Origin: a virus
Lineage: Duplodnaviria; Heunggongvirae; Uroviricota; Caudoviricetes
Virus record (IMG/VR): IMGVR_UViG_2609460125_000009
Length of the DNA: 64,000 nucleotides
Reading direction: 5' to 3' (one strand)
In this document: positions 30,502 to 56,264 of the stretch, piece by piece
How the letters are laid out: each line of letters begins with the position of its first letter
Position numbering within the stretch: the stretch's first letter is position 1
Position numbers and translations under genes: made by a program
The notes under the pieces: generated by a model
The model's database searches: none
What the model was told of the DNA's origin: nothing
The model's input: the letters and a program-made list of their open reading frames with translations, nothing else

Positions 30502-31557
30502 CTATTTGCGAGTCTTTGCCTTGCGCAACTCTTCGAGAAGCGCCAGTTCTTCTTTACTCAACATGACCATTTTGCCTTCTTTTTCGTCAGGCACAACGTC
30601 GATAATGTCATCTTGATTCTCATCTGGGAGGCTATATTCCGTCTCATCATTATCGATTTTTGTTGATATTTGTGCCTGGCGTAACTTTGGCCGCCTATAG
30701 TGGATGACGAAGTAGACCGAGTTTCCGCGCTTAACTTCCGTGTAATCGAGATATCCTATCTCTCGCAGCTGTTCCATAGCCTTTCTTACCGTCGCATTCT
30801 GAGTAATAGTGCGACTTGTCAGATTAAGTCTGGCGCGTAAACGGGCTAGTGATATTGGTGCCGGATCAGGCGGCAAACTTTCAATAAAAGTATAAAGCGC
30901 CTGAGCGGATTCTTTTCTTGAGAGTTCGTTTATAGCCCGGAGTTGCAGAAGAACCTTTTTGTCGAACTGGTAGAGTTCGAAAATCTTGGGATCTGCTTTC
31001 AGTTCGACCGTATCGTGCTTGACACTATATTTTGCCGTTTGCACAAGATGCGTTACGTAAAACTCATCAGAGCCTTTGCTACGGAACGAGATGGTATTTG
31101 TGGCAATACGGCTTAGCGAACTGTCCAGGCGTTTGCGTAACTTCGCTGATGACCTGGCGGTCGGAATGCCACACAGCCTTACAAACTCAACGAACGGCAA
31201 CGTGACAGTATCGCCAACGACCTTGTGTTTGGCAAACGCGTGGATTATTCCCACCCACGTTTTAAAGTCGTTATCCATATCAAGCCGAAGGCCAGAGATC
31301 CTTATGTCTTCGTACCCTTCGGCTTTTGCCAGAGACAGCTGTTTGAGTTCAGCAGAGGCATCCATAGAGACCATTTGCCCCTTTCTTCCTCTGGATGTCG
31401 ATTTCAGCGTCGGAACGAAGAGGCCCAGACGCATCAAAGCAACAGGCTGAACAGTGTTATTAGTGTTAGGAACCAACGTAACAACTTCGCCTGTCTTTTT
31501 ATCTGTTTCTGAAAATGCTTCAACGATCGCTATGTTTTTATTGCCGTTTTCGCTCAT
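30502..31557 (-). CDS. iteron-binding plasmid replication initiator (RepA/Rep_3-like)
   Basis: 351-aa protein flanked on both sides by iteron arrays, adjacent to DnaA boxes and GATC cluster; family assignment from architecture and general sequence character. Confidence 0.7.
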
Positions 31558-31602: not shown

Positions 31603-31722
31603 TTACAGTGGATAGTAGCACTCATCACAGCGGTTATCCTACCGTCTATAGTGGTTTTTCTCCTCTCTATAGTGGTTGCTTTGCTCCCTATAGTGGATTA
31701 TTCGCTCTCTATAGTGGATATC
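31603..31722. repeat. iteron array upstream of rep (incC-like): direct repeats ctctatagtgg at ~20-bp spacing
   Basis: ctatagtggtttttc, ctctatagtggttgc, cctatagtggatta, ctctatagtggatat. Confidence 0.75.
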
Positions 31723-31740
31723 GATCATGTCTGAAGGCAG

Positions 31741-32220
31741 ATGGCGCAACGGTTTGAGGTGGGCGGGGATCTTATTGGGTCTTTATGGGTCTCTTTGGTT
31801 CTCTTTGTGATCTGAATTACTGGATCGGGCCTGTGGATAAAAATCAGAGGATTTCAAGAACAGGTAACTCTACTCTTCTGTGGATATTTAAGGACATAAG
31901 AATCATGACTAAGAGTAGAGTTTAAAATATATCTATGTATATCAGTATGTTAATGAAGAATTAAGTCATTAAGTTATCCATAAAAGACAATGTGCTCTAC
32001 TCTCTACAGTGGATATATACAGCTCTCCAGAGTGGTTGTTTTACTCTTCATAGCGGTTATTCAGCTCTCTACAGAGGTTTCTTTGCTCTCCATAGTGGAT
32101 GGCAACACCCTTTCAGACCAGTAACCGCAACGGCTAGAGGCGATCGGGGATCTCTTTGGATCTTCTATTTGATCTTACTTGGGATCTCTTATTTGGATCT
32201 ATCCAGTGGATAACTGGGAT
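31741..32220. promoter_or_regulatory. origin-like region: two copies of a module (GCAACGG.TAGAGG..GGGGATCT + GATC cluster + DnaA box) separated by a second iteron array (31995-32102)
   Basis: DnaA boxes tgtggataa (31832-31840, perfect TTATCCACA on the other strand), near-matches at 31879-31887, 31974-31982, 32205-32213; six GATC within 32143-32200. Confidence 0.6.
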
Positions 32221-32300
32221 AAGTAAAACAGGCAAATGCAGATTAAGGTATGCCTAATGAGTTATCGTAGCATCGGCCAATAACTACTGAAAAAACGATT

Positions 32301-32945
32301 ATGGATCTAAAACGCACGCGCTGGGTTCGTCGTCTTGAGGACGGCTCCTACACTATCGAATCAAATTCCAACCTGAATAAGCAGAAGTTACTTTGTGATA
32401 TCTGCGGTATAGCGGCGAAGTGCCCGATCTACGAAACCAGAATTAAACTTGATAAGGCTGGTGTGAACTTTCATTTGAATAGTTGTATCAGGTACGTTCC
32501 ATTGCTCGCATTTCGTAAACCGATCATCGGATTGGATGCGCCCTACTTCAACACACTCCGTTCAGGAGTAACGTGGCGAGATCGTTTATCACCAGACAAA
32601 CTGATTTGCCTTGTATCCGCAGATACAGGAAAAATCATTCGTTTTGGGAAAGTAGACAAGGTTTACTCAGGCCCAGTTGACGAGATGTTGCGGAAACACA
32701 GCCGGTTTAATCACCTCTGCATGGGTGGTGAGAAAATAGAGAAGGTTGAAGAAGTGATCCGCAAATCCTACGGACACTTCCTGACCAAAGATAGCCTGCT
32801 CACTGCAATCTACATCAGACATGTAAAACGTGAGTTCGACCTTGAATACCATAGCGAAGAAGAACTGAACCTTGTCGATCCACGTCCTAAAGCTGGCGTC
32901 ATAAGCATAAATGCAGCGCGTAAAAAGCCCACTGACGCGCTGTAA
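32301..32945 (+). CDS. hypothetical protein
   Basis: 214-aa ORF followed by hairpin terminator ggcgtagat-agaa-tctacgcc. Confidence 0.5.
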   Translation: MDLKRTRWVRRLEDGSYTIESNSNLNKQKLLCDICGIAAKCPIYETRIKLDKAGVNFHLNSCIRYVPLLAFRKPIIGLDAPYFNTLRSGVTWRDRLSPDKLICLVSADTGKIIRFGKVDKVYSGPVDEMLRKHSRFNHLCMGGEKIEKVEEVIRKSYGHFLTKDSLLTAIYIRHVKREFDLEYHSEEELNLVDPRPKAGVISINAARKKPTDAL

Positions 32946-44484: not shown

Positions 44485-45128
44485 TGGATTACCGGATTGG
44501 GATCACTGGTGCTCAGGGCAGTGGGAAAACAACCCTGGCAAAATATATCGACAAACATTACGGAATCCCTTACGTGGATGCTGGTGTCGGAAGTTTGATG
44601 AGCCGACTCGGTGTTCGAGTAGGTGAGTCTATGCCTCTATATGAGCGGCTTCAGATTCAAATGGAAATAGCAAAGCATATAGAGCTACTTACGCGTGGTG
44701 TTGAAGGCTTTGTTATCGATCGCACACCTGCTGATGTTATGGCCTACACGTTGGATTTGGTCGGCCATACCAATGAAGATCGATGTATTGAGTTAGCCCT
44801 CGATATCGAAAAGTTTTGCCACAAAACTGCTATTTCAAACTTTAACGCCATTGCTGGCTTACGCCCGGGAGTCGCTCTCTCAGAGCGAGATTACTTGCGA
44901 TCACAACGAGCATCATTAGACCGTCTGTATGTCGCTCGTATTGATGCGTTGATGTGCGGGGAACTGACAAAAATTCACCTGCATCCGCAAAGGGGGGATC
45001 TGCAAACCTTCGTCGTTTCCAACCGATATCGCACGGTTGAAGCAAGAGCCAGATCAGTGATGAGAATGCTAGATAACGCTGTAGAAAAGATAGAAAACCG
45101 GTTCTGTGGCCGAGTGACCGTTCATTAG
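44484..45128 (+). CDS. P-loop NTPase, putative (deoxy)nucleotide kinase
   Basis: Walker A GITGAQGSGKTT at N-terminus; sits in the nucleotide-metabolism cluster. Confidence 0.5.
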   Translation: MDYRIGITGAQGSGKTTLAKYIDKHYGIPYVDAGVGSLMSRLGVRVGESMPLYERLQIQMEIAKHIELLTRGVEGFVIDRTPADVMAYTLDLVGHTNEDRCIELALDIEKFCHKTAISNFNAIAGLRPGVALSERDYLRSQRASLDRLYVARIDALMCGELTKIHLHPQRGDLQTFVVSNRYRTVEARARSVMRMLDNAVEKIENRFCGRVTVH

Positions 45129-45189
45129 AAATTGTTCGCCTCTTCGACATTGCGACAATAAAACTCTCAAAATGGGTTAAGGATAAAAA

Positions 45190-45609
45190 ATGTTTAGTGA
45201 AATGTTGCTTGAAGATGAACTGGATCGGAAAACAACAGAGGCTTTGATTCGTGTAGCGGACGAACATTCCCGGTCTCTTATGAGCGATCGAGAGGCTCGT
45301 CTGGCTATTCGTGCCATATTCGAAACTGCGCAGGGGCTTGTTGGCGCACAAGTAGGTGAAGCCATTAACATCGCCATGTCTCAGTTCAGTGAAGGCAGTA
45401 AAAAGCCTCTGTTTCCTATGCATTTGATGCTGGCTGGTGGCACGGTGCTTTACGTCTCTGTTTGTCTGGATAGCAACCAAATCAACATTCTCAACACGGC
45501 GTCAGGTAAGTGGAAAGATCCGGTTGTCTGTGAAACCAGTGAAGAAACTTTGAAAAAAGCGGCTCAATTTGTACGTAGCGCACTACTTAAGGGCGCTAAG
45601 AAGTTGTAA
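45190..45609 (+). CDS. hypothetical protein
   Basis: 139-aa ORF with AGGA RBS. Confidence 0.5.
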   Translation: MFSEMLLEDELDRKTTEALIRVADEHSRSLMSDREARLAIRAIFETAQGLVGAQVGEAINIAMSQFSEGSKKPLFPMHLMLAGGTVLYVSVCLDSNQINILNTASGKWKDPVVCETSEETLKKAAQFVRSALLKGAKKL

Positions 45610-45618
45610 GGAGTAGTA

Positions 45619-46413
45619 ATGGGACAACCGGTAGACATAACAGGTAAACGTTTTGGAAAGTTGGTTGCACTTAAATATTCCGGTATTTCAAACAAACAAG
45701 GGCGACTTTGGGATTGCATCTGCGATTGCGGCAACACCTGCCTGGTTAGTTACGGGAAGCTAAATCACGGGGCGACAATATCGTGTGGCTGTGTCTACAA
45801 CGCACATCGCCGTAGCGTAAAGCCTCATGGTATGAGTAAAACGCCAATTTATCGTATATGGCTGGGTATGCGGGAACGATGTGAAAAACCAATCCATCAC
45901 GCCTATAAGTGGTATGGCGGCCGAGGTATCAAAGTCTGCGAGCGGTGGCAAATATTTGAAAACTTTTATGCTGACATGGGAGAGCGACCAGAGGGGATGT
46001 CTCTTGATCGCAAAGATGTGAATGGTGACTACGAACCTGAAAATTGCAGATGGGCGACTTTTGAAGAACAGGCCAATAACACGCGTTCAAACTTAATTTT
46101 GGAGCATAAGGGGGAAAAGCTGACTCTCTCACAATGGGCTAAAAGAGCCGGGATTCAGACATCAACTCTTCACTATCGAATCAAGAAAGGGTGGCCATTA
46201 GATCGCGCGCTTAACGCCAGCGTCGACACGTATGCCAACCGAGATAGTAAGCGTCTGATCGAGTGTCGCGGCAGAACTCAGCGAATTACCGAATGGGCTA
46301 GAGAGGTTGGCTTGACTGCGACCATTATCTCGCAGCGAATTTTGAGGGGGTGGGATGTTGAAGCTGCCATCTTCACACCGTCCAAACGACCAGTAAAAGG
46401 AGATAAAAAGTGA
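45619..46413 (+). CDS. HNH-like homing endonuclease family protein (degenerate) with C-terminal HTH repeats
   Basis: Cys-rich N-terminus, YGGRGIKVCERW and SLDRKDVNGDYEPENCRWAT..EQANN resembling HNH_3-type proteins, two helix-turn-helix-like repeats. Confidence 0.45.
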   Translation: MGQPVDITGKRFGKLVALKYSGISNKQGRLWDCICDCGNTCLVSYGKLNHGATISCGCVYNAHRRSVKPHGMSKTPIYRIWLGMRERCEKPIHHAYKWYGGRGIKVCERWQIFENFYADMGERPEGMSLDRKDVNGDYEPENCRWATFEEQANNTRSNLILEHKGEKLTLSQWAKRAGIQTSTLHYRIKKGWPLDRALNASVDTYANRDSKRLIECRGRTQRITEWAREVGLTATIISQRILRGWDVEAAIFTPSKRPVKGDKK

Positions 46414-46958
46414 TTGCTACAGGGGTGGACATCGAATCAACAGGTCTTGATTTCCTCTCAGGCCATAAAATCATTGAAATCGCAATGGTGAAGTACGAAA
46501 TTGAGACACAGACAATGGTTGATAGTTTTGTAATGCGGTTCAACCCGCGTCGCAGTATCGATCCGAAAGCGCAAGCGGTACACGGCATCAGTCTTGAAGA
46601 TTTAGCCGCCGAGCCGTTACTAGCCGATCACGCTTCATCTGTCGCTTCGTATCTCTCTTCTTCCGATATTTGGATAGCCCACAACGGCGAAGCGTTCGAT
46701 ATTCCGTTTATTAGGCATGAGCTGAAAAGTTACGGTTTTTCGCTTCCAGACATCCCATTGATTGACACTCTATTTTCCCTGTGGGCCACAGAAGACGGTA
46801 AACGTCCTCGCCTTGAAGAATTGGCCTTCTCTCTTGGCTTTATATACGATCATGCCAAAGCACATAGTGCCTTATATGACACAAACTTAATGATGCAATG
46901 CTTCTTTAAGGCACGTAATAAATACGGATTTTTTAAATTACCCTCTGAAATTGTGTAA
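46410..46958 (+). CDS. DnaQ-like 3'-5' exonuclease (DEDDh)
   Basis: Exo I VDIESTG, Exo II IAHNGEAFD, Exo III HSALYD; GTG start with AGGAG RBS. Confidence 0.75.
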   Translation: MIATGVDIESTGLDFLSGHKIIEIAMVKYEIETQTMVDSFVMRFNPRRSIDPKAQAVHGISLEDLAAEPLLADHASSVASYLSSSDIWIAHNGEAFDIPFIRHELKSYGFSLPDIPLIDTLFSLWATEDGKRPRLEELAFSLGFIYDHAKAHSALYDTNLMMQCFFKARNKYGFFKLPSEIV

Positions 46959-46963
46959 AACAA

Positions 46964-47002
46964 AAGCCTGCTTTAAAGAGAGTTTGAAGCAGGCTTTCTT
47001 TT
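46964..47002 (+). terminator. rho-independent terminator after the exonuclease gene
   Basis: aagcctgctt ... aagcaggctt then tctttt. Confidence 0.6.
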
Positions 47003-47118
47003 AAAGAACAGTCGCCTTTCAATCATTTCCTGCCTGTATTTAATACTTTTCCGCCTGATAGGTTTAGTCAAAATGTAGCCATCGAAACGCAAATGTAACC
47101 AAGCAGAAGGAGACTTAC

Positions 47119-47928
47119 ATGAGTTCGGTTGAAAATGTAATGACAAATGATGATCTGGACGAGCTGACAGCCATGTTGCAATCACTTGATGAACCAGTAA
47201 AAAAAGCCGCACAGGTTGAAAATACTGATGATATTGACGATCTGCTGCTCGGCCTCGATGCTGGCGTAGCCATGAGTTCTGATGATGTTGCCGAAGAACT
47301 GTTCAATGAAGAAAAAGCAGGTGATTTCAGCTCTGCTTTAAATGAGTTGGAGTTAGCGCATGAGCCTATAAACGTAATTAACGCTGAAAGTGTTGAAGCT
47401 GCCGAAAACGAGCCAGAACAATTGGGATTTATTGAGGTTGAAGAGTATGTTGAGGTTAATGACGAATTAAAAGTTCAACAGTCAAATGATAGCAACACAA
47501 ATAAAAAAGCGCGTACTGCAAGAGGTCCTCGTTTTACTTTAAGTGATAAAGATGATTCGTTTTTCAATAAAGCAGGCTTAGAAACAGATATTTTCTTAGA
47601 CGCTTACGAAAACGCGCCTGTCAAAGCAAAGGATAAGATATTAAACCTTCTTAATTGGTTTAGCGGAGGTCCAGATATTAGTGTTTACACGGTAATTTCC
47701 ATGAGACACCTTCTCACAGAAAAGAAGGCTACAAGTAATAGTATTAAGATTGCTTTAATGAGCAATCCAGAAAAACCGTATCCGCTTAACACTGCGTCAA
47801 CTCAGGCTGGGCAAATGATGGCTGTATTTCCAGCGACAGGAATTGCCGTTAGAGACGGTGGAAATCTAACATTGAACGAAGAATCACCGATCGTTAAGAA
47901 GTTTGTAGCGGAGTACACTATTGGATGA
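47119..47928 (+). CDS. hypothetical protein with highly acidic N-terminal half
   Basis: 269 aa; AGGAG RBS; Asp/Glu-rich first ~120 aa. Confidence 0.5.
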   Translation: MSSVENVMTNDDLDELTAMLQSLDEPVKKAAQVENTDDIDDLLLGLDAGVAMSSDDVAEELFNEEKAGDFSSALNELELAHEPINVINAESVEAAENEPEQLGFIEVEEYVEVNDELKVQQSNDSNTNKKARTARGPRFTLSDKDDSFFNKAGLETDIFLDAYENAPVKAKDKILNLLNWFSGGPDISVYTVISMRHLLTEKKATSNSIKIALMSNPEKPYPLNTASTQAGQMMAVFPATGIAVRDGGNLTLNEESPIVKKFVAEYTIG

Positions 47929-48111
47929 CGTCCCCCTACTGAAAATAAAGCCCATAGAGAGCTTTATAGTGCTGGGTAAGCCAATCACATACCCAGCACC
48001 ACAAAAACGCGCCAGAGAGCTTCTCGTTTGCATTTCTGGCGCGTTTTATTTGATTGCCAGACATAAAATCAAATGCAAAAATAGGTAATCACTTACCTAT
48101 CGAGAAAGAAG

Positions 48112-48705
48112 ATGATTGCAGCCGAAAAAATCAAACAGCGAAAGCGCGACAACTCTCTTCGTGACCTCTGGAGAACACCTGACTGGCTGTTTTCTGCCAT
48201 TCAACGTTATCTTGGAGTGACATTTGATGTTGACGTTGCCTGCAACAAGGACAATGCAAAGCTGCCTAATTTCATAGGCGTTGAGCGTGATGCTTTGAAA
48301 TCTGAATGGGGACAGCCAGGTACAATTGCCTTCCTCAATCCACCCTACTCCAAAATCTCCCCCTGGATTGATGCGGCTATACGTGAGCAGGCTCGCGGAG
48401 TTACAACAGTGATGCTAATTCCTCAATCCCTCGATACAAAGTGGTATGAGCGTGCAACAGAGTGTGCGAATGAGACGATTATTCTGTCTGGTGGCCGCGT
48501 AGCGTTTGTCGAGCCTGACGTCAATTTGGGTCAGGTAGAAGTAAACATCAACCCCGGTGGCAGTATGCTCGTTGTTTTTCGAGGATTTTGTCAGGACGCT
48601 GGGCACTCTATAAGCAAGATCCCTTTGGACGTCATGAAAAGTCTGGGAGGGTATGATCCTGCGAATGTGATCAGGAAAAAAAGACCATCAAAGAAGGCTG
48701 CTTAG
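48112..48705 (+). CDS. DNA N6-adenine methyltransferase (phage Dam-like)
   Basis: Catalytic NPPYS motif and overall organisation of the small phage N6-MTase family. Confidence 0.7.
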   Translation: MIAAEKIKQRKRDNSLRDLWRTPDWLFSAIQRYLGVTFDVDVACNKDNAKLPNFIGVERDALKSEWGQPGTIAFLNPPYSKISPWIDAAIREQARGVTTVMLIPQSLDTKWYERATECANETIILSGGRVAFVEPDVNLGQVEVNINPGGSMLVVFRGFCQDAGHSISKIPLDVMKSLGGYDPANVIRKKRPSKKAA

Positions 48706-48726
48706 TTTGTTCTGGAGTCTGTAATT

Positions 48727-48791
48727 AGCCTGCTTCTGTATATATAAATAACTACATATTAATTATTAATATACGGAAGCAGGCTGTTTTA
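48727..48791 (+). terminator. long-stem hairpin terminator, twin of 1363-1426
   Basis: agcctgcttctgtatat ... atatacggaagcaggct then gtttta; same G.U position as the first copy. Confidence 0.55.
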
Positions 48792-48891
48792 TATCAGAGA
48801 CTCCCAGACCTGAACACCACTACAGAATCCACTAGAACCCCTTCCCAGACGCTTTAAAATCGATTTTATGAACCACTTTAAGGAAACCAAC

Positions 48892-49122
48892 ATGTCATAC
48901 CCGACTAATGTCGTTGCGCTCGTAGAGAGCGATTTTCTGGCCCAGGCTCGTGAAATGATGAAAGATCGTGAGCAGGCTTTCAACTTGTACGAGTGGGCAA
49001 TTAAGTGCTTGCATCTTGGCGAGCATCGCGAACTTGTTGAACAGCTTTTAGGTGAGTTGATCAATGAGGTGTTTGCCTTGAATGTTCAACTACATGGTCG
49101 AGAAAATAATCAATCACAATGA
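48892..49122 (+). CDS. hypothetical protein (76 aa)
   Basis: Start moved to the ATG with AAGGAAACCAACATG context. Confidence 0.4.
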   Translation: MSYPTNVVALVESDFLAQAREMMKDREQAFNLYEWAIKCLHLGEHRELVEQLLGELINEVFALNVQLHGRENNQSQ

Positions 49123-49706
49123 TAGATAAGTACAAACTATTCATAAAGTGAATTGTAAGTGCTAAGATCTGATAGTTTCCAGTCGTAGACTGGAGGCTCG
49201 ACCTGATGGGTGGGGGTAAGCGTCACTGGCGTCAGGTTTAAAAAAGCTCACTACCAGCGTAGAACCGGTGCCGTATAGGTGTCGGGGAAGGGGGAACCAA
49301 AGTGAGCAGAGACAAGGGTCACTTTATGATTGTCGAGTCTGGGGTGTTTCGAGAGGTTGAATCCAGTACTCCCCTTCATAAAGTGTGGGAAGATCTCGGT
49401 TCTGGGGTGCTGTCATCCATAACTTCCCAAGTCTAAGCTGGCAGTAGACTTAGACCATAACTTTTCAGGTTATGAAACGACCAGGTTGGTGAGGGATTTT
49501 TATACTCACCTCCCTGGGAGAGTATTACCTGAAAAGACAACCTCTCACTTCGTTCGAGGTGAACTTCACTCACTTCGTTCGTTCAGTTCAGGTTTATAAA
49601 AACCTGTTCTGGGAAGTAATTTGTTTATTTTAATAATTATTAACACGCACGCGTGTGCGCACGCGCGAGGAAAAAAATCGGCGCGGCGCTTGATTCAGGA
49701 GTTTAT
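49123..49706. other. ~580-bp non-coding region with hairpins, tandem cacttcgttcg repeats and GC palindrome acgcacgcgtgtgcgcacgcgcg next to an AT-rich tract
   Basis: No ORF of 60 aa or more on either strand; structures read directly; function unknown. Confidence 0.4.
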
Positions 49707-50300
49707 ATGACGACGAAGACACCAGCCCGATCGCAAGCAAAAACTCGCAAAAAAGCCAAAAACAAAAATTCTCCCCGCACCAATCCCACAACGCCTGTCG
49801 TAGAGTTCAATCCCCAGCTTAAAACCGTGAAAATCTTCAGTGATGGCTCTTGCCTTAAAAATCCGGGTGGCCCGGGCGGTTACGGTATAGTTCTCCAGTA
49901 TCGTGGTGAGGAACGCGAGTTCTCAGATGGTTTTCATAGCACCACCAATAACCGCATGGAGATGATGGGGGCACTTATCGGGCTGGAGCGTTTGAAATAT
50001 CCATGCAACGTTATTTTGCACTCTGATAGCCAGTATCTGAAAAACGGCATGACACAGTGGATGAAATGGTGGAAACGCAATGGATGGGTGACTTCTGACA
50101 AAAAACCGGTAAAGAATGTTGATCTGTGGAAGCGTCTGGATGAGGCTGCAAGTCGACATAATGTTCGCTGGAAGTGGGTTAAAGGTCACGCCGGGCATCG
50201 TGAAAATGAAATATGTGATCGACTCGCGAAGATCGCAGCTTTTTCCGCAGCAGATATGCCTCACAAGAAAGATATTGGTTTTGTTTACAACAAGCAGTAA
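49707..50300 (+). CDS. rnhA: ribonuclease HI
   Basis: [57 protein letters not shown] align with E. coli RNase HI; start moved to the Met with AGGAG RBS; basic N-terminal extension. Confidence 0.85.
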
Positions 50301-50445
50301 GTAAGTGTTTACCTATCATTTTAAATCATGTATCTTATCGGCGTCAGGATGACAATGTGTCGGTAAGACACAGTTCCAGGATGGAACGAGAAAGGCGGCT
50401 GGCAATCGCCAGCCGCAACTCTTTCTGACACTGGATGGAGTCCAC

Positions 50446-50940
50446 ATGGCACGTCAAACCTATTTCACTTCTGCAACTAAACGTCCTCGTTCACTACGTC
50501 AAATTTTGGCCGAATTATTTAGCGGTCGTGTTCTGTCACGTCTTGATGAACTAGAGACTGCCGTTCGGTTGCTGAATGAACGTTTAGATAAGCAAGCGTC
50601 AGTTGTTGCGAACGTGGGGGCGATTGTTACCTCTGGTTCTTCACGCGAAGCGAAAAGTACACGGCCTTTAGTGAAGGAGAAAAACAACAAGGACAGTTCG
50701 AATGGAAAATTTTCAAAGAAAGAGGCTGAAACCAATGGCCTACGTTCTCATTATAGTTTCACTGGCGACGGTAGCCGTTCCAGCCGGCCAGAGCCTTTTG
50801 ATGCCGGGTTCATCCATCACCACACCTCCGTCGACGACAATTACCACCACTCCAGTAGAGCGTCCTGTCACTCTGGATGGGATGACGGTGGATGCGATAC
50901 CTCAAGTTCATCCAGTTACTCAGGATCATGCTGTGACTAA
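50446..50940 (+). CDS. hypothetical protein; C-terminal part overlaps an alternative frame (50702-50953)
   Basis: First ~85 aa protein-like, remainder low complexity; alternative frame encodes a TM segment plus Pro/Thr-rich linker. Confidence 0.35.
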   Translation: MARQTYFTSATKRPRSLRQILAELFSGRVLSRLDELETAVRLLNERLDKQASVVANVGAIVTSGSSREAKSTRPLVKEKNNKDSSNGKFSKKEAETNGLRSHYSFTGDGSRSSRPEPFDAGFIHHHTSVDDNYHHSSRASCHSGWDDGGCDTSSSSSYSGSCCD

Positions 50941-50949
50941 GGCGGTTGT

Positions 50950-51147
50950 ATGAACTGGTTTTCAAATCACTTTGGAAAAACTTGGCTGGCGATTCTGGCT
51001 TTCATAGCTCTCATGGCCGCCGGTTGGGTATCGAACATTGTAAAACTCGTTTGCTCTGGTGATCTCCAGTTTCAGGCTGGTATGACCTTGGCTCGTGTTG
51101 TTGGGATTTTTGTTTTTCCAGTCGGTTCGGTACTTGGTTATTTCTGA
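50950..51147 (+). CDS. small membrane protein (65 aa)
   Basis: Two hydrophobic segments. Confidence 0.4.
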   Translation: MNWFSNHFGKTWLAILAFIALMAAGWVSNIVKLVCSGDLQFQAGMTLARVVGIFVFPVGSVLGYF

Positions 51148-51240
51148 CGGTTGTTAGTGCATATGCATTGACCGTCTTTTCGTAAGCAATTCATGTAACT
51201 AGAAAACAACTTGTTTTAACAAATAACAAAAGGAAAGCAC

Positions 51241-51666
51241 ATGTTAGGTTTATTCAAAAAGAAAACTCGTAAAGCTGTTATCGAGGTCAAAAAAATGGAG
51301 AACCGAGATGCGGTTGAAGCCACCGTGTGGGGCGCGTACATGATCTCCTATGCCGATGGCACATGCGACGCAAAGGAAATTTCCATTCTTGAGAAAACAA
51401 TTGCAGCTCTGCCTGCGTTTTCTCCGTTTGCTGGTGAGATTGCCCAAATGAGCGCCAATATCCGTGCTCAATACGAAGCCTCACCGCGCCGCGCTAATGC
51501 CCAGGCTTTACGTGAGCTGGCTGATGTGGCCGGGACTAATGATGCAGTAGATGTACTGTGTCTGTGCCTTGATATTGCCGACCAAGACGGTATTGGCGAA
51601 CAAGAAGAGCTGGCCCTGAAAAAGATCGCACAGGCGCTTCAGTTGTCACTGGATGCTTATCTCTAA
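51241..51666 (+). CDS. TerB-like domain protein (tentative)
   Basis: Two ADG..(E) helical repeats (ISYADGTCDAKE, DIADQDGIGEQEE); conserved upstream motif. Confidence 0.45.
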   Translation: MLGLFKKKTRKAVIEVKKMENRDAVEATVWGAYMISYADGTCDAKEISILEKTIAALPAFSPFAGEIAQMSANIRAQYEASPRRANAQALRELADVAGTNDAVDVLCLCLDIADQDGIGEQEELALKKIAQALQLSLDAYL

Positions 51667-51824
51667 TGCTTGAGAGATTCCGGCTTGTGACCGTCATTGC
51701 TCTTCTGGTGATGGCGGTGTTGGTGGATTTTACGGGAAAGATGATGTCTGTCATTTCTGATGGCGTCCTCATTGGTCTGGCGATCTACTTCGCTTATCCG
51801 CTAGTCCGTAAAGCAACGTGTTAA
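51666..51824 (+). CDS. small membrane protein (52 aa)
   Basis: ATG overlaps TerB-like stop; hydrophobic; followed by terminator 51828-51856. Confidence 0.4.
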   Translation: MLERFRLVTVIALLVMAVLVDFTGKMMSVISDGVLIGLAIYFAYPLVRKATC

Positions 51825-51963
51825 TGACAAGGGCCAAATGGCCCTTGTGTTTCGTTGACCGAAATAGAGAGTTTGCACCTTTACGTTTAGCTTGCTCCCC
51901 TTTTATGCCACATCACAATAAAGCCAATAAGAAAACAACTTGTTTAAGCATTAGGAAAAACAC

Positions 51964-52530
51964 ATGTGCAAGAAATGCAAAGCGATAGCTGATGAACAAA
52001 ACGCCTTATTCGAAGAAATGGATGCTAATGAACTGGTCAAAATGTTAGCCATTCTTCGAGGAATAGAAGACGTTTCCATATTTGAGAGAGTGGTTACAGC
52101 ACTTAATTTTGAGTCCACCTTTGAAGAGCCAACTCAGATTGTAGCTTTAGCACATCATTTCGGTGTTCATTATCTTGCTGAAAAAGAGAGAGCTGATAAG
52201 TTGCAAGCGACTTTGGATATGGTGAGCGAGACTCAAGGATCTCATGACGGTAATAAAAGTGAGACGATTATTGCCAGCAAAGATCGTGAAATTGCCGGGC
52301 TTAAATCCTCTCTAACGATGTTGATGTCTGCAATTAACCTTATGTCTTCTAAAGCAGGTTATAAAATGCCATCACTAAACAGCGACGATCCGATGGCCGT
52401 TCGCCAGCTTTTAGGTGCAATGGCCGACCAGCTCGACGACACAAAGAGTCGCCTTGAAGACATGATGCGGGAGCTCACGCATCGCCATGACTTGAATAAG
52501 CAGCCGCACAAAACGCAATACGCACTCTAA
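51964..52530 (+). CDS. hypothetical coiled-coil protein
   Basis: 188 aa; conserved upstream motif; terminator gggggc-gaaa-gccccc at 52548-52570. Confidence 0.55.
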   Translation: MCKKCKAIADEQNALFEEMDANELVKMLAILRGIEDVSIFERVVTALNFESTFEEPTQIVALAHHFGVHYLAEKERADKLQATLDMVSETQGSHDGNKSETIIASKDREIAGLKSSLTMLMSAINLMSSKAGYKMPSLNSDDPMAVRQLLGAMADQLDDTKSRLEDMMRELTHRHDLNKQPHKTQYAL

Positions 52531-52671
52531 TACTGCACCAGTCGACAGGGGGCGAAAGCCCCCATTTTTACGCCTTAAATCTGCTGTAACGCCTATGAAT
52601 GCAGCTTTTATGCCTTTTCAAGTTTGCGATAATTACACCAATCAGAAAACAAATTATTTAATGGTGTAATT

Positions 52672-54357
52672 ATGAATACAGCCCTTTCTATCATCGACGA
52701 TGCCAGCTCAAACACGGCTATCGACTATCGTCAGGAAATGAATGTCATCCACGAAATTGTGGCCGAGTGCGAGAAAGAGATCGCCTTCATGTATCAGGTA
52801 CACGACTTCGTTTATGGCGACGAACGCCACAACATGATTAATCGCCTGCTGAGACTAAACCATCGACCAGATGAAGATCGCTCGCGTTTAAATCGAGGTT
52901 GGTTGGATAAAGTCGATCTGGAATGGGTGAAACAGAATATTTGGGCCGAGTACTGGAGGAAGGTCACGGACATGACTAACGTTTTGCTGATCATGCCAGC
53001 TTCCCGTCGAGATGAGTGGCGCGAGCAGTTTATAGAGGGCAAACAGGAAGTCATCAAAACTGACAGAACCGGCTACCAGATGAAGGTTAAAGAGTTCGTT
53101 GGTGTACCGGAGTTCAAAGCAGAAACGGTCATACCCACGATGCTTAATTTGCTGAATGACAGGCACAAATATCTCTCTGAGCGCGTGTATGGCTTGTTTA
53201 AGGCGCTGAGTCCTGCGCACAAGACAAATAAGACAAACGGTTTCAGCGAGCGTCTGATAATCGCTGACTGCATTTCTGATTTCTGGCGGGACAGCGTTAG
53301 CGTGAACTATCGCAAAGAGGACTACATCGACGATCTGCGTGTCTTGCTTCATTTCTTCGCGCACAAAGAATTTATTACCATCAACCGCACTGCTGAGGTG
53401 CTATCAGCTGCGTATAGGGCAAACGACTGCCAGACCGGTGACTGGATGAACGTCGATGGAAATCTGATGCGCGTGAAGATGTTCAAGAACGGCAACGTTC
53501 ACTTTGAAATACATCCTGACGTGGCCTGGAAGTTGAATGAGGTGCTGGCTTACAGTATGCCTGCTGCAATCCCCGCGCCATGCCGAACTGCGCCAAAAAC
53601 ACGGGCACCAAAGCAGTTCGGTTTAATCCAGAAGACGATCTCCGTGCCGGTTCGCACTGCGCTTCGTGACGGGCGATTGAGCAAAGACAAAGGCGTATGG
53701 TACTTCTCTGATTCAGCTCTCCAGAAGTCGCAGGTGGAAGAGCTTGAGCGCACACTGAGCTTCATTGGCGGCGTGCAGGAGAAAAAGCACTGGCAGTTCC
53801 CGTATGAGATCGGCCATACGCTAAATACGATTGTGGCTACCGGATTAATACCGGATACAAAATCACACCAGTTCTACCCTACCCCACGCTTGATTGCTGA
53901 GTACGTTGCCAGAGCCACTGAATTGAAGTCTGGTGAGAAGCTGCTGGAGCCTCAAGCCGGACGTGGGGATCTTCTGGCCTATATCAACGCCGATCTGGAA
54001 GATGTTACCTGCATAGAAATCGCACCTCTCTTCGCTGATATCCTGCGCGGAAAAGGGTATACGAACACGATTTGCTGCGACTTCATAAAGTGGTCTGAGG
54101 ACAACGTAGGTTATCAGTTCGACAAAATCGTTATGAACCCGCCGTACTCGCTTGGTCGTCATAGAGAGCACACGCTGGCTGCGCTGGGGCATCTGAAAGT
54201 CGGCGGGCGTCTTGTAGCAGTATTGCCGGGCACTGCGCCAATACTGGACTGGATGACGATGGATAATTACGTTTATGCCAGAGGGAAGTCGTTTACCAAC
54301 GAGTTTGAAGACACAGGGATCACAGTCAGCGTATACGTTTTCAAACGCGTTAAATGA
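52672..54357 (+). CDS. fusion protein with C-terminal N6-adenine DNA methyltransferase domain
   Basis: C-terminal SAM-binding LLEPQAGRGDL and catalytic NPPY; N-terminal ~400 aa of unknown function. Confidence 0.65.
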   Translation: MNTALSIIDDASSNTAIDYRQEMNVIHEIVAECEKEIAFMYQVHDFVYGDERHNMINRLLRLNHRPDEDRSRLNRGWLDKVDLEWVKQNIWAEYWRKVTDMTNVLLIMPASRRDEWREQFIEGKQEVIKTDRTGYQMKVKEFVGVPEFKAETVIPTMLNLLNDRHKYLSERVYGLFKALSPAHKTNKTNGFSERLIIADCISDFWRDSVSVNYRKEDYIDDLRVLLHFFAHKEFITINRTAEVLSAAYRANDCQTGDWMNVDGNLMRVKMFKNGNVHFEIHPDVAWKLNEVLAYSMPAAIPAPCRTAPKTRAPKQFGLIQKTISVPVRTALRDGRLSKDKGVWYFSDSALQKSQVEELERTLSFIGGVQEKKHWQFPYEIGHTLNTIVATGLIPDTKSHQFYPTPRLIAEYVARATELKSGEKLLEPQAGRGDLLAYINADLEDVTCIEIAPLFADILRGKGYTNTICCDFIKWSEDNVGYQFDKIVMNPPYSLGRHREHTLAALGHLKVGGRLVAVLPGTAPILDWMTMDNYVYARGKSFTNEFEDTGITVSVYVFKRVK

Positions 54358-54418
54358 TAGGTAAATACTTACCTAATTTGTGTAAGAATGTAGTTACTAA
54401 ACGATAAGAGAAAAACAC

Positions 54419-55123
54419 ATGAACAACCTCCAGTTAGAGCATTTTAACGTCACAGGCCATTCTGATTTTCCTTTCAAGTTTACATTGAAAGGTTATGCAG
54501 AGGATGCGGTAGGCCAGATCATTATTGATAAAGGCATCGTTAAGTTTGAGGGGGATTTTGATGAATCCGCGAAAACATTCATAGACTTCGTTGCCAAACG
54601 TTGGAGCGAGCAATGGAAAAACCTGGAAAAGCGCGCCAATGAGTTTGATCGGTTCATGGATGCAATGGATACAGCAAAAGAGGCTCTTGATGCCGGGACT
54701 CCGTTAGATCTGGAGTCACTTTTCAACGGCGAAGTGGCCTCTGCGATGTTCGCCACCATGTTCGCGGGTGAGTTCGTCCGCAGCGGTGCCAAAAACTACC
54801 TTGAGCTGGATTACAACGTCCCTGCAATTGGCGATTTCGTCGTTACCATCCAACGCAAAGAAGGTAAGACGCCAGGTGAACGCGTCGCAGAGCTTGAGGC
54901 CGTTGTGGATCAGCGTAACGGAGAGTGTGACCGTTTGATCAACGAGCTTCATGCACTTCGGGAAGAAAGAATATGTGCGGGTAGCAATACACGTAATGCA
55001 GCGGATATCTACTTCCAGTTAGTTGAGGAATGCCAGATTCCACCAGGTGGCTCTCTTGTCGATTACGTCAGACATTTAATGGCGGAAGTTAACTCCAGCC
55101 ATAAAGATGGTGAGGTGCGCTGA
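54419..55123 (+). CDS. hypothetical protein
   Basis: 234 aa; conserved GAGAAAAACACATG context. Confidence 0.55.
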   Translation: MNNLQLEHFNVTGHSDFPFKFTLKGYAEDAVGQIIIDKGIVKFEGDFDESAKTFIDFVAKRWSEQWKNLEKRANEFDRFMDAMDTAKEALDAGTPLDLESLFNGEVASAMFATMFAGEFVRSGAKNYLELDYNVPAIGDFVVTIQRKEGKTPGERVAELEAVVDQRNGECDRLINELHALREERICAGSNTRNAADIYFQLVEECQIPPGGSLVDYVRHLMAEVNSSHKDGEVR

Positions 55124-55503
55124 TGTTTGGCATTGACGCACAGCGTATAGCCGCTTTTGCAAAAAGCCCTCTTGATAATCCCTTGTCTCGTAGTGAGCAA
55201 ATGGAGCTGGCAAGGCTTTTTCTTCACATTCAAAAACAGGCAGACATTTTCAATAACATGCCTAATCAACCTATTCTGGATGGTCACATCCAGATGGTCA
55301 TTAACAGTCATGAGAAAGGCTGGGCTGCAATCGTCCCCTGCACAATTACATACAAGTTGGCGAAAGAGGTTCAAGAGTTTCGAAAAGCCAGTGTCGAATC
55401 GGAGTCTACCAAAGCCGCAATAAACACTCTTATTCGCATGGGGTTCACATGGACCGGTGGAGCCTACTGGCAAGCACCTCACCCCATTTTATCCGGCAAT
55501 TAG
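55123..55503 (+). CDS. hypothetical protein
   Basis: 126 aa; GGTGAGG RBS; overlapping stop/start. Confidence 0.5.
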   Translation: MFGIDAQRIAAFAKSPLDNPLSRSEQMELARLFLHIQKQADIFNNMPNQPILDGHIQMVINSHEKGWAAIVPCTITYKLAKEVQEFRKASVESESTKAAINTLIRMGFTWTGGAYWQAPHPILSGN

Positions 55504-55622
55504 ACGCTACAAATCCTTCGGCATGAATAAATAAAGGCCATAAGTTGTGGCCTTAAATAAATTGTTTTCTACCTTTTCTTATTTGTGAAAATAACAACAA
55601 CTAGAAAACAACGGAGTTAAGA

Positions 55623-56264
55623 ATGTCTAGTATTTCCGAAGCTCATATGTTCGCCGCTGGCGCTCATGGTGGCGTTGGTCAGAAAAGAAAATATACCGGC
55701 GAAGACTACATCAACCACCCGGTTGCTGTCCGAGAGATTGTTGCATTGCATGACGGAACCGTGGAGATGCAAATCGCGGCGCTTCTGCATGATGTGGTCG
55801 AAGACACCCATGTAACCATAGAGATGGTTCGTGATCACTTCGGTGAGCGCGTAGCTGAAATGGTTCAGGCTCTGACCAACATTGCAAGGCCAGAAGACGG
55901 CAATCGAATACAGCGTTTCATCATCAATGTCCGGGAGCTGGAGCAAAATCTCGACATGCAGACGCGCATGATCAAGCTGGCTGACCTGCTCGACAATACC
56001 TCTTCTATCGTGAGTCGCGATCCCGAGTTTTCAGCTGTCTACCTCGCAGAGAAAGAACTGATGCTGGACGTACTCTTTCACGGCAAAGAGATTGGTGCCA
56101 ACGCTGATGTTGTCGAGTACATGGAGAGGATAGGTATAGAACACCCGTTGCTATTAAGCGCAATGGCGAAAGTCACTGAAGGTATTGCGCTTCTGAAACC
56201 GGTACACATCAAACGTTATGAAAAACACAAATCGCTGATCTGGAGCGCGTGGGAGGCTGCATGA
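55623..56264 (+). CDS. HD-domain phosphohydrolase, SpoT-hydrolase-like (small alarmone hydrolase candidate)
   Basis: AALLHDVVEDT matches the RelA/SpoT hydrolase HD motif; ~210 aa with no synthetase domain. Confidence 0.65.
   Translation: MSSISEAHMFAAGAHGGVGQKRKYTGEDYINHPVAVREIVALHDGTVEMQIAALLHDVVEDTHVTIEMVRDHFGERVAEMVQALTNIARPEDGNRIQRFIINVRELEQNLDMQTRMIKLADLLDNTSSIVSRDPEFSAVYLAEKELMLDVLFHGKEIGANADVVEYMERIGIEHPLLLSAMAKVTEGIALLKPVHIKRYEKHKSLIWSAWEAA

Follow-up and report, generated by a model that had tools for sequence, protein, structure and literature searches.

A DUF4942 module homologous to free-standing plasmid YdiA/YgfB proteins is fused to a predicted N6-adenine methyltransferase in an SSU5-type phage-plasmid

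We analysed a stretch of 64,000 nucleotides (nt) from the Caudoviricetes record IMGVR_UViG_2609460125_000009 of IMG/VR, hereafter called the window, focusing on two plus-strand genes whose products, of 561 and 197 amino acids (aa), both carry an NPPY motif. The window is a phage-plasmid of the SSU5/pECOH89 type: the 10 kb around both genes share 98% nucleotide identity with numerous E. coli plasmids, pECOH89 (NC_023916.1) among them, 97% with Escherichia phage Cyrano and 84% with Salmonella phage SSU5, and both genes are kept across the SSU5/pECOH89 group. The genes, and the segments of the larger product, are as follows.

52672..54357, plus strand: gene for the 561-aa DUF4942-methyltransferase fusion, with an ATG start (SSU5_095, CYRAN_90); full-length match to phrog_6263 'DNA methyltransferase' (E = 5.5e-300)
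52672..52929, plus strand: aa 1-86, the mostly helical, poorly conserved start of the YdiA-like module (AlphaFold 2 helices at aa 20-48 and 52-62)
52930..53580, plus strand: aa 87-303, the DUF4942 core, homologous to free-standing YdiA/YgfB (PF13708 at aa 140-295, 74 bits against a cutoff of 25)
53581..53856, plus strand: aa 304-395, a small alpha/beta segment of variable sequence that is inherited along with the catalytic core, a candidate DNA-recognition element
53857..54354, plus strand: aa 396-561, the minimal core of a gamma-class N6-adenine methyltransferase (motif X, QFYPTP, nt 53869-53886; motif I, LEPQAGRGD, nt 53944-53970; motif IV, NPPY, nt 54136-54147)
48112..48705, plus strand: gene for the 197-aa phage-type N6-adenine DNA methyltransferase, with an ATG start (PF05869, TIGR01712 and phrog_111)

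An earlier reading of the letters and open reading frames (ORFs), made without database searches and referred to here as the sequence-only reading, had proposed two NPPY-containing adenine methyltransferases about 4 kb apart. Both ORFs are present at those positions, separated by 3,966 bp, with NPPY at aa 489-492 of the large protein and at aa 76-79 (nt 48337-48348) of the small one, and motifs and family matches agree in placing both products among N6-adenine-type methyltransferases. A six-frame regular-expression scan of the window returned no further NPPY ORF of at least 100 aa. The sole other match to [NDS]PP[YFWH] was a DPPF in the minus-strand ORF 44845-45501, which we took as a chance ORF on the non-coding strand. 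Neither of the two methyltransferase ORFs is due to chance. The 561-aa protein has hundreds of full-length, equal-length homologues at 99% down to 33% identity, and its N-terminal 372 aa match at least 615 clusters (50% identity), nearly all of them 510-580 aa long. Both genes are annotated in thousands of records. The SSU5 record labels both SSU5_088 (the small gene) and SSU5_095 (the large one) 'DNA methyltransferase'; the small protein is an 'Adenine methyltransferase' in Cyrano and a 'phage N-6-adenine-methyltransferase' in RefSeq, and the large one (CYRAN_90) is a 'DUF4942 domain-containing protein' in both. Proteins 98-99% identical to the latter bear the same label or that of 'DNA modification methylase'.

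The large protein proved to be a true fusion with a C-terminal N6-adenine-type methyltransferase, as the sequence-only reading had described it. In an alignment of 21 homologues (33-87% identity), Q400-F401-Y402-P403-T404-P405, L425-E-P-x-A-G-x-G432 (with P427, A429, G430 and G432 of motif I), E449 and D470-F471 were invariant or nearly so, N489, P490 and P491 were invariant, and position 492 was either Y or F. The motifs follow the X-I-III-IV order of gamma-class amino-methyltransferases, motif I (aa 425-433) and motif IV (aa 489-492) are about 55 aa apart with no insertion between them, and aa 396-561 form a class I S-adenosylmethionine-dependent Rossmann fold. A profile search of the PDB gave M.TaqI (E = 2.2e-4) and the M subunit (HsdM) of EcoR124II (E = 2.7e-4). 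Direct sequence search of the whole protein against the PDB gave M.TaqI only (E = 0.1), and weak PDB matches of the N-terminal part to ZorA and ribosomal L28 were dismissed as noise. Among the structural matches, sequence identity was highest for M.TaqI and CamA (25% each). PADLOC returned several models of type II methyltransferases (MTase_II) and, from the MADS system, the methyltransferase mad2 (5e-15). The N6_Mtase family PF02384 scored 18.4 bits on aa 396-561 alone, below the cutoff of 20.4, and 18.5 bits on an IncHI2 plasmid homologue; a further homologue, P0100, has a precomputed PF02384 match. NCBIfam gave marginal methyltransferase matches only and Pfam gave DUF4942 only, which accounts for the uninformative RefSeq name of the large protein. 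No match to ParBc or PF01555 was found in it, and phrog_9133 covers aa 328-560 as a single unit. These results indicate that the gene product is a predicted gamma-class, M.TaqI/HsdM-like N6-adenine DNA methyltransferase. It differs from enzymes of that type (PF02384; Eco57I, PF07669) in several respects. The protein stops at aa 561, right behind its last Rossmann strands and about 70 aa past NPPY, so that the usual C-terminal target-recognition domain is absent, and no HsdS-like gene lies near the 561-aa gene. Its core comprises only about 166 aa and stays below the Pfam gathering threshold, and its N-terminal extension of about 395 aa is unlike the HsdM N-terminal domain or solved target-recognition domains.

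Relatives of the methyltransferase core (aa ~400-520) were also seen within phage proteins of very large size (phrog_15406, 11358 and 10691, of 1,259-3,925 aa), and a gene of Pseudomonas phage H66 labelled 'structural protein' (KC262634.1, 53543-53884) contains one too. Such cases may point to methyltransferases that are carried in the virion, like DarB.

The N-terminal region of the fusion was correctly estimated at about 400 aa, the Rossmann core beginning at about aa 396. The domain search that the sequence-only reading had suggested for this region yielded, in Pfam, DUF4942 alone, at aa 140-295, and at a permissive threshold (E < 5) neither aa 1-95 nor aa 301-400 had a Pfam match. Comparison with free-standing proteins extended the homology further. 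The 282-aa YgfB of an IncI plasmid aligned end to end with aa 1-301 (BLASTP, E = 6e-11), and hhalign against the free-standing family gave a probability of 99.4% (E = 2.3e-21) for aa 87-303, at an identity of only about 20% between free-standing YdiA/YgfB and the window module. Identity over aa 1-90 falls to 6-30% in distant homologues, yet this part can be aligned to the N-terminus of free-standing YgfB. In a fold comparison against the PDB, no solved-structure relative of the DUF4942 module was found, nor any similarity to a target-recognition domain or HsdS. Across the homologues, the polar residues T102, Q119, S180, T185, N186, D221, H277 and N289 of DUF4942 are invariant. The isoelectric points (pI) of the three N-terminal segments are 5.1, 8.4 (the DUF4942 core) and 9.5, and that of free-standing YgfB is 6.0. 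In a search for a split form, with a DUF4942 gene followed by a separate methyltransferase gene, we encountered the 390-aa representative P0127, which ends 68 bp from the end of its contig.

Conservation and recombination both separate this module from the catalytic one. Measured by segment against the window protein across 20 homologues, identity was 6-80% over aa 1-90, 38-95% over aa 91-310 (DUF4942 core), 20-83% over aa 311-395 and 38-80% over aa 396-561 (methyltransferase core). The DUF4942 core is thus at least as conserved as the catalytic core, and the variable stretches are aa 1-90 and 311-395; conservation was lowest over aa 304-395 (20-39% in distant homologues). One homologue, P0045, is a natural mosaic that switches parents at about aa 303, where the free-standing proteins end, at a conserved A-I-P motif (aa 299-301). 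Over about aa 31-300 its identity to the window protein is 90-97% (93% over aa 91-310), and from about aa 304 to the end it is 83-100% identical to the Klebsiella-type P0078 (93% over aa 396-561), its catalytic unit being just 48% identical to that of the window. This mosaic shows that the DUF4942 and methyltransferase units are swapped between phage-plasmid lineages. The segment aa 304-395 was inherited together with the methyltransferase core in P0045, and is therefore the better candidate for DNA recognition.

The free-standing form of the module is abundant on plasmids. A tblastn search with aa 91-322 matched at least 5,000 plasmid records; among the matches listed, 4,413 records held distant homologues only (<60% identity), and 3,893 were conjugative plasmids. 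The free-standing proteins have 282-295 aa throughout, fall into very large clusters and carry DUF4942 as their sole Pfam domain. On an IncI-gamma/K1 plasmid, a 282-aa DUF4942 protein directly adjoins mobC/nikA-oriT and is oriented as ardA, psiA and psiB; on a pOXA-48-like IncL/M plasmid, a 286-aa version lies amid JAB/RadC-like, DGQHR and DUF3085 genes. No methyltransferase gene adjoins the free-standing copies in these IncI-gamma/K1 and IncL/M plasmids. In Supplementary Table 1 of Samuel et al. 2024 (Nature 635:186, PMC11541004), the YdiA/YgfB proteins correspond to family 24, 'Uncharacterized; DUF4942; Methyltransferase' (n = 2171, false discovery rate p = 0, median ORF position 1 from oriT, strand value 1), by that table the 24th largest of the families with significant enrichment in leading regions of plasmids; the table lists a second DUF4942 family, family 76 (n = 551, median position 6). 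DUF4942 proteins also occur in the SRL pathogenicity island, after KlcA, RadC/YeeS and YeeU/YeeV (PMC6980539), and in SPI-3 (PMC10893270). We found no functional or methylome data for the family in the literature, and the ST131 methylome paper (PMC4659465) does not cover it. Since the module exists free-standing in plasmids and islands, its function needs no covalently attached methyltransferase.

Compared to these proteins (families 24 and 76, and the island proteins L0010 and SRL orf56), aa 1-303 of the window protein are homologous end to end, and both forms reside on mobile elements, the free-standing one together with anti-restriction and orphan methyltransferase genes. The free-standing proteins, however, lack a methyltransferase domain and are encoded on conjugative IncI and IncL/M plasmids where the leading region starts near oriT, among the first ORFs to follow it, whereas the 561-aa gene has no such leading-region placement and the window is a non-conjugative phage-plasmid: neither relaxase nor oriT was found in its 64 kb, and its relatives are typed as non-mobilizable.

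The fused form has its own wide distribution. Full-length homologues are known from Escherichia, Salmonella, Klebsiella, Citrobacter, Cronobacter, Buttiauxella, Enterobacter, Xenorhabdus, Moellerella, Providencia and Morganella, where contigs of about 100-118 kb encode them, so the gene is widely conserved in this phage-plasmid group. The fused family also occurs in phages of Aeromonas, Pseudomonas, Vibrio and Marinomonas. An IncHI2 plasmid carries a 563-aa fused version near a Dam-family methyltransferase, and true Dam-family genes adjoin the IncHI2-type homologues. In the early region of a Variovorax lambdoid prophage, a distant homologue follows cI-like and cro-like genes with a PF01555 methyltransferase immediately after it, and in an Enterobacterales lambdoid prophage another follows lambda-P-like replication genes and is flanked by PF01555 and C5 (PF00145) methyltransferases. 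No neighbour is conserved across the SSU5-type, IncHI2, lambdoid and other contexts, and hidden Markov model (HMM) searches for nucleases, helicases and defence systems gave no match in the flanking ORFs 51964-52530 and 54419-55123. With neither a conserved neighbour nor a nuclease detected beside it, the 561-aa gene is therefore an orphan, which agrees with the earlier view that both methyltransferases look orphan.

Two further features were found just ahead of the gene.

52548..52563, plus strand: terminator-like GC hairpin with a T-run after the upstream gene (consensus scan), conserved in SSU5
52629..52673, plus strand: perfect inverted repeat, or RNA hairpin, with a 12-bp stem and the arms ATAATTACACCA ... 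TGGTGTAATTAT, spanning a Shine-Dalgarno-like GGTG and the first two bases of the ATG

The terminator-like hairpin suggests that the 561-aa gene is its own transcription unit. The second hairpin (RNA fold -12.4 kcal/mol, z = -2.3) has a compensatory A->G / T->C change across its arms in Cyrano and is only partly kept in SSU5; it could serve in translational occlusion or control, or as an operator.

The 197-aa protein clears the curated cutoffs of two families, scoring 131.8 bits (cutoff 28.1) with Pfam PF05869 ('Dam') and 113.9 bits (cutoff 97.05) with NCBIfam TIGR01712 'phage N-6-adenine-methyltransferase'. In tblastn comparisons its identity is 39% with the VT2-Sakai dam product and about 30% with the methylases of T1-like phages; a sequence match to a solved structure was not found for it. 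The description 'Dam-like' given by the sequence-only reading thus holds in that the enzyme belongs to the phage Dam family PF05869, but not in the sense of a homologue of E. coli Dam, the family of which (PF02086) matched neither methyltransferase protein and is unrelated to PF05869 despite the name. The T1 and HP1 Dam enzymes are further members of the PF05869/TIGR01712 phage methyltransferases, and the VT2-Sakai enzyme, M.EcoVT2Dam, reportedly methylates GATC. The 197-aa protein resembles M.EcoVT2Dam and the other enzymes of that group in being a small orphan phage enzyme with no separate target-recognition domain. It is probably GATC-specific, as its relatives would predict, an identity of 39% to the VT2-Sakai Dam being no guarantee of this. 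M.EcoVT2Dam has been treated in the literature as a Dam homologue (PMC6602927).

Possible substrates of this enzyme lie at the replication origin of the element, which has the following layout.

30502..31557, minus strand: Rep3-family rep gene, followed by the origin (31.6-32.3 kb)
~31625-31725 and ~31995-32100: two sets of iterons of the CTCTATAGTGG type
32143..32205: GATC cluster (GGATCT-type repeats) by the DnaA-box-like GTGGATAA, a likely substrate of GATC methylation

The DnaA-box-like sequences of the origin are TGTGGATAA, GTGGATAA and TTATCCA, and there is also an AT-rich stretch. The origin had been called GATC-rich, and the only 300-bp windows with at least 6 GATC sites indeed lie at 31901-32450. 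GATC is not enriched in the window overall (291 sites observed and 341 expected, 0.85 of the Markov expectation); this ratio is like that of most palindromes, and we rejected the observed/expected ratios of palindromic 4-mers as an uninformative hint of specificity. In the same counts CTAG was strongly depleted window-wide (35 observed and 97 expected, a ratio of 0.36, the other palindromic 4-mers lying at 0.73-1.22); scarcity of CTAG is usual in enterobacterial DNA. None of the GATC sites in the cluster varies in SSU5 or in Klebsiella phage pJN2-26, and the segment with the GATC sites and DnaA box is the only part of the origin conserved in Klebsiella relatives that have a different rep gene and iterons.

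The oriR of phage P1 is a phage-plasmid origin with a Rep3-type initiator, iterons, DnaA boxes and GATC repeats, and P1 encodes its own Dam-type methylase, thought to methylate GATC independently of host Dam. Our element is like P1 in its Rep3-type initiator, iterons, DnaA boxes, origin GATC cluster and possession of an adenine methyltransferase. The methyltransferases here are from other families, however, and a methylation dependence of this origin would be a prediction. Given an invariant GATC cluster that resembles P1 oriR, GATC methylation may be relevant to replication control; the methylating agent could be either the PF05869 enzyme of the element or host Dam.

Both methyltransferase genes are housed in a same-strand block (46410-56264, plus strand) of nucleic-acid and accessory genes, which contains the following.

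46410-46958, plus strand: DnaQ/RNase T-like 3'-5' exonuclease
49653-50300, plus strand: RNase H
51241-51666, plus strand: TerB/TciA-like protein
54419-55503, plus strand: Ead/Ea22- and Eaa-like phage accessory proteins, downstream of the 561-aa gene
55623-56264, plus strand: HD-domain phosphohydrolase

A 269-aa ORF (47119-47928, plus strand) lies directly upstream of the small methyltransferase gene. Its N-terminal ~110 aa are strongly acidic and rich in D and E, it matches no Pfam family, and it is also kept in SSU5 (SSU5_087) and Cyrano. This protein might be a DNA mimic or another anti-restriction candidate. SSU5-type phage-plasmids and IncI, IncL/M and IncHI2 plasmids are major carriers of extended-spectrum beta-lactamase and carbapenemase genes, and blaCTX-M-15 is present in close relatives of the window. 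In several relatives that are otherwise collinear (NZ_CP045278.1, NZ_LR890608.1 and NZ_CP113488.1), an ISEcp1-blaCTX-M-15 unit sits inside the methyltransferase-bearing 10-kb stretch.

Both enzymes are ordinary orphan methyltransferases whose most likely role is self-protection, and two orphan phage methyltransferases would by themselves be unremarkable. For the larger one, we consider it reasonably probable that it is an orphan DNA N6-methyladenine methyltransferase that guards the DNA of the phage-plasmid from restriction, consisting of a swappable catalytic unit and a conserved DUF4942 module able to function independently of the fusion. In this model the 561-aa enzyme, the product of a core gene of SSU5-type phage-plasmids, would methylate the DNA of its own element, which could then survive host restriction after infection or induction. 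Whatever DNA recognition exists would probably be supplied by the variable alpha/beta segment of the C-terminal unit (aa ~304-561), ahead of the minimal Rossmann core. The DUF4942 module (aa 1-303) may act in early establishment by engaging the incoming DNA or a host factor, and the 197-aa enzyme would keep the invariant origin cluster and other GATC sites methylated independently of host Dam. Domain make-up, motifs, fold, N-terminal homology, module boundary, conservation and genomic contexts are results of the analysis; DNA as substrate, protection, the DUF4942 role and GATC specificity are inferences.

Fusions of a ParB-like domain to a methyltransferase, such as M.EcoGIX and M.EcoGII, offer a parallel, being likewise orphan adenine methyltransferases of mobile elements with an accessory domain fused to their N-terminus. 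They differ in combining a beta-class PF01555 enzyme with a ParB-like domain, where the window protein combines a gamma-class enzyme with DUF4942, and a non-specific or single-strand activity is not implied by the parallel. For such fusions of leading regions and prophages, a role in protecting incoming DNA has been proposed (PMC11541004, PMC4659465).

Of the other explanations for the N-terminal module, the one that survives best is that DUF4942 is an anti-defence effector in its own right, a protein that inhibits a restriction or other immune system, and that the fusion layers inhibition upon methylation. We hold this to be possible, at rather less than even chances. The free-standing homologues are among the most enriched leading-region families, at the median position and strand value given above, in a region where ArdA, KlcA, PsiB and orphan methyltransferases predominate; the copies on pathogenicity islands stand beside KlcA, RadC and YeeU/YeeV; and the invariant polar residues point to a conserved binding or catalytic site. 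Weighing against it, pI values of 6.0-8.4 are not acidic, and we rejected a DNA mimic of the Ocr/ArdA type for the N-terminal part on these grounds. Moreover, Samuel et al. obtained for family 24 neither a sequence nor a structure match to known anti-restriction or anti-CRISPR proteins, the DIAMOND columns being all NA in the listed part of its row in their supplementary table (PMC11541004).

It is unlikely, in our judgement, that DUF4942 is instead a target-recognition domain placed at the N-terminus, the free-standing YdiA/YgfB proteins being DNA-binding remnants or specificity subunits. The early end of the catalytic core means that DNA contact is needed elsewhere in the protein, the DUF4942 core is mildly basic, and the fused architecture is strictly conserved in more than 600 clusters, all of which would fit such a role. 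Target-recognition domains, however, are normally the most variable part of a methyltransferase, whereas here aa 91-310 are conserved to the same degree as the catalytic core or better and the variability is concentrated in aa 311-395. The mosaic P0045 pairs the DUF4942 module with a catalytic unit only 48% identical to that of the window, free-standing copies occur with no adjacent methyltransferase gene, and the module has no structural likeness to a solved target-recognition domain or HsdS; a standard target-recognition domain, the outcome that would have undone the proposal of the sequence-only reading, is thus not recognisable in the N-terminal part. We also considered that DUF4942 might be some other DNA-engaging, recruiting or oligomerisation module.

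As to the substrate of the C-terminal domain, methylation of RNA (N6-methyladenine in rRNA or tRNA) or of protein (glutamine, as by HemK-type enzymes) is very improbable. DNA is the predicted substrate: the best PDB profile matches and the highest structural-match identities, as well as the PADLOC matches, are to DNA methyltransferases, QFYPTP resembles motif X of HsdM and type IIG enzymes, and prophage homologues cluster with other DNA methyltransferases. Least probable of all is that the 561-aa gene is the modification half of a restriction-modification or defence system, since, although some phage records label homologues 'RE endonuclease' or 'DNA restriction methylase' and the two flanking ORFs have no assigned function, neither ORF matches a nuclease, helicase or defence HMM, phage accessory genes resembling Ead/Ea22 and Eaa lie downstream, and the neighbours differ wholly between contexts with no partner kept.

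Going by the searchable papers, what is new here is that the N-terminal module of the large protein is YdiA/YgfB, that it is linked to the methyltransferase at a point of natural recombination, and that it lacks a known fold relative. The DUF4942 family, typically the very first gene to enter the recipient, is uncharacterised, and many phages, as well as phage-plasmids and IncHI2 plasmids, have it fused to an adenine methyltransferase. The covalent joining, the natural joint and the lack of resemblance to a target-recognition domain lead to the hypothesis that the function of DUF4942 is tied to methylation or restriction evasion, and the joint at about aa 303 marks where the 561-aa protein might be cut. 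We propose, as a tentative idea, that DUF4942 may be an establishment or anti-defence module of mobile elements that works on the entering DNA, or side by side with it, during the first minutes, the fused form delivering or potentiating the methyltransferase and the free-standing form working without one. If true, the SSU5-type fusion would be a 'guilt by fusion' clue tying one of the largest uncharacterised leading-region families to protection from restriction.

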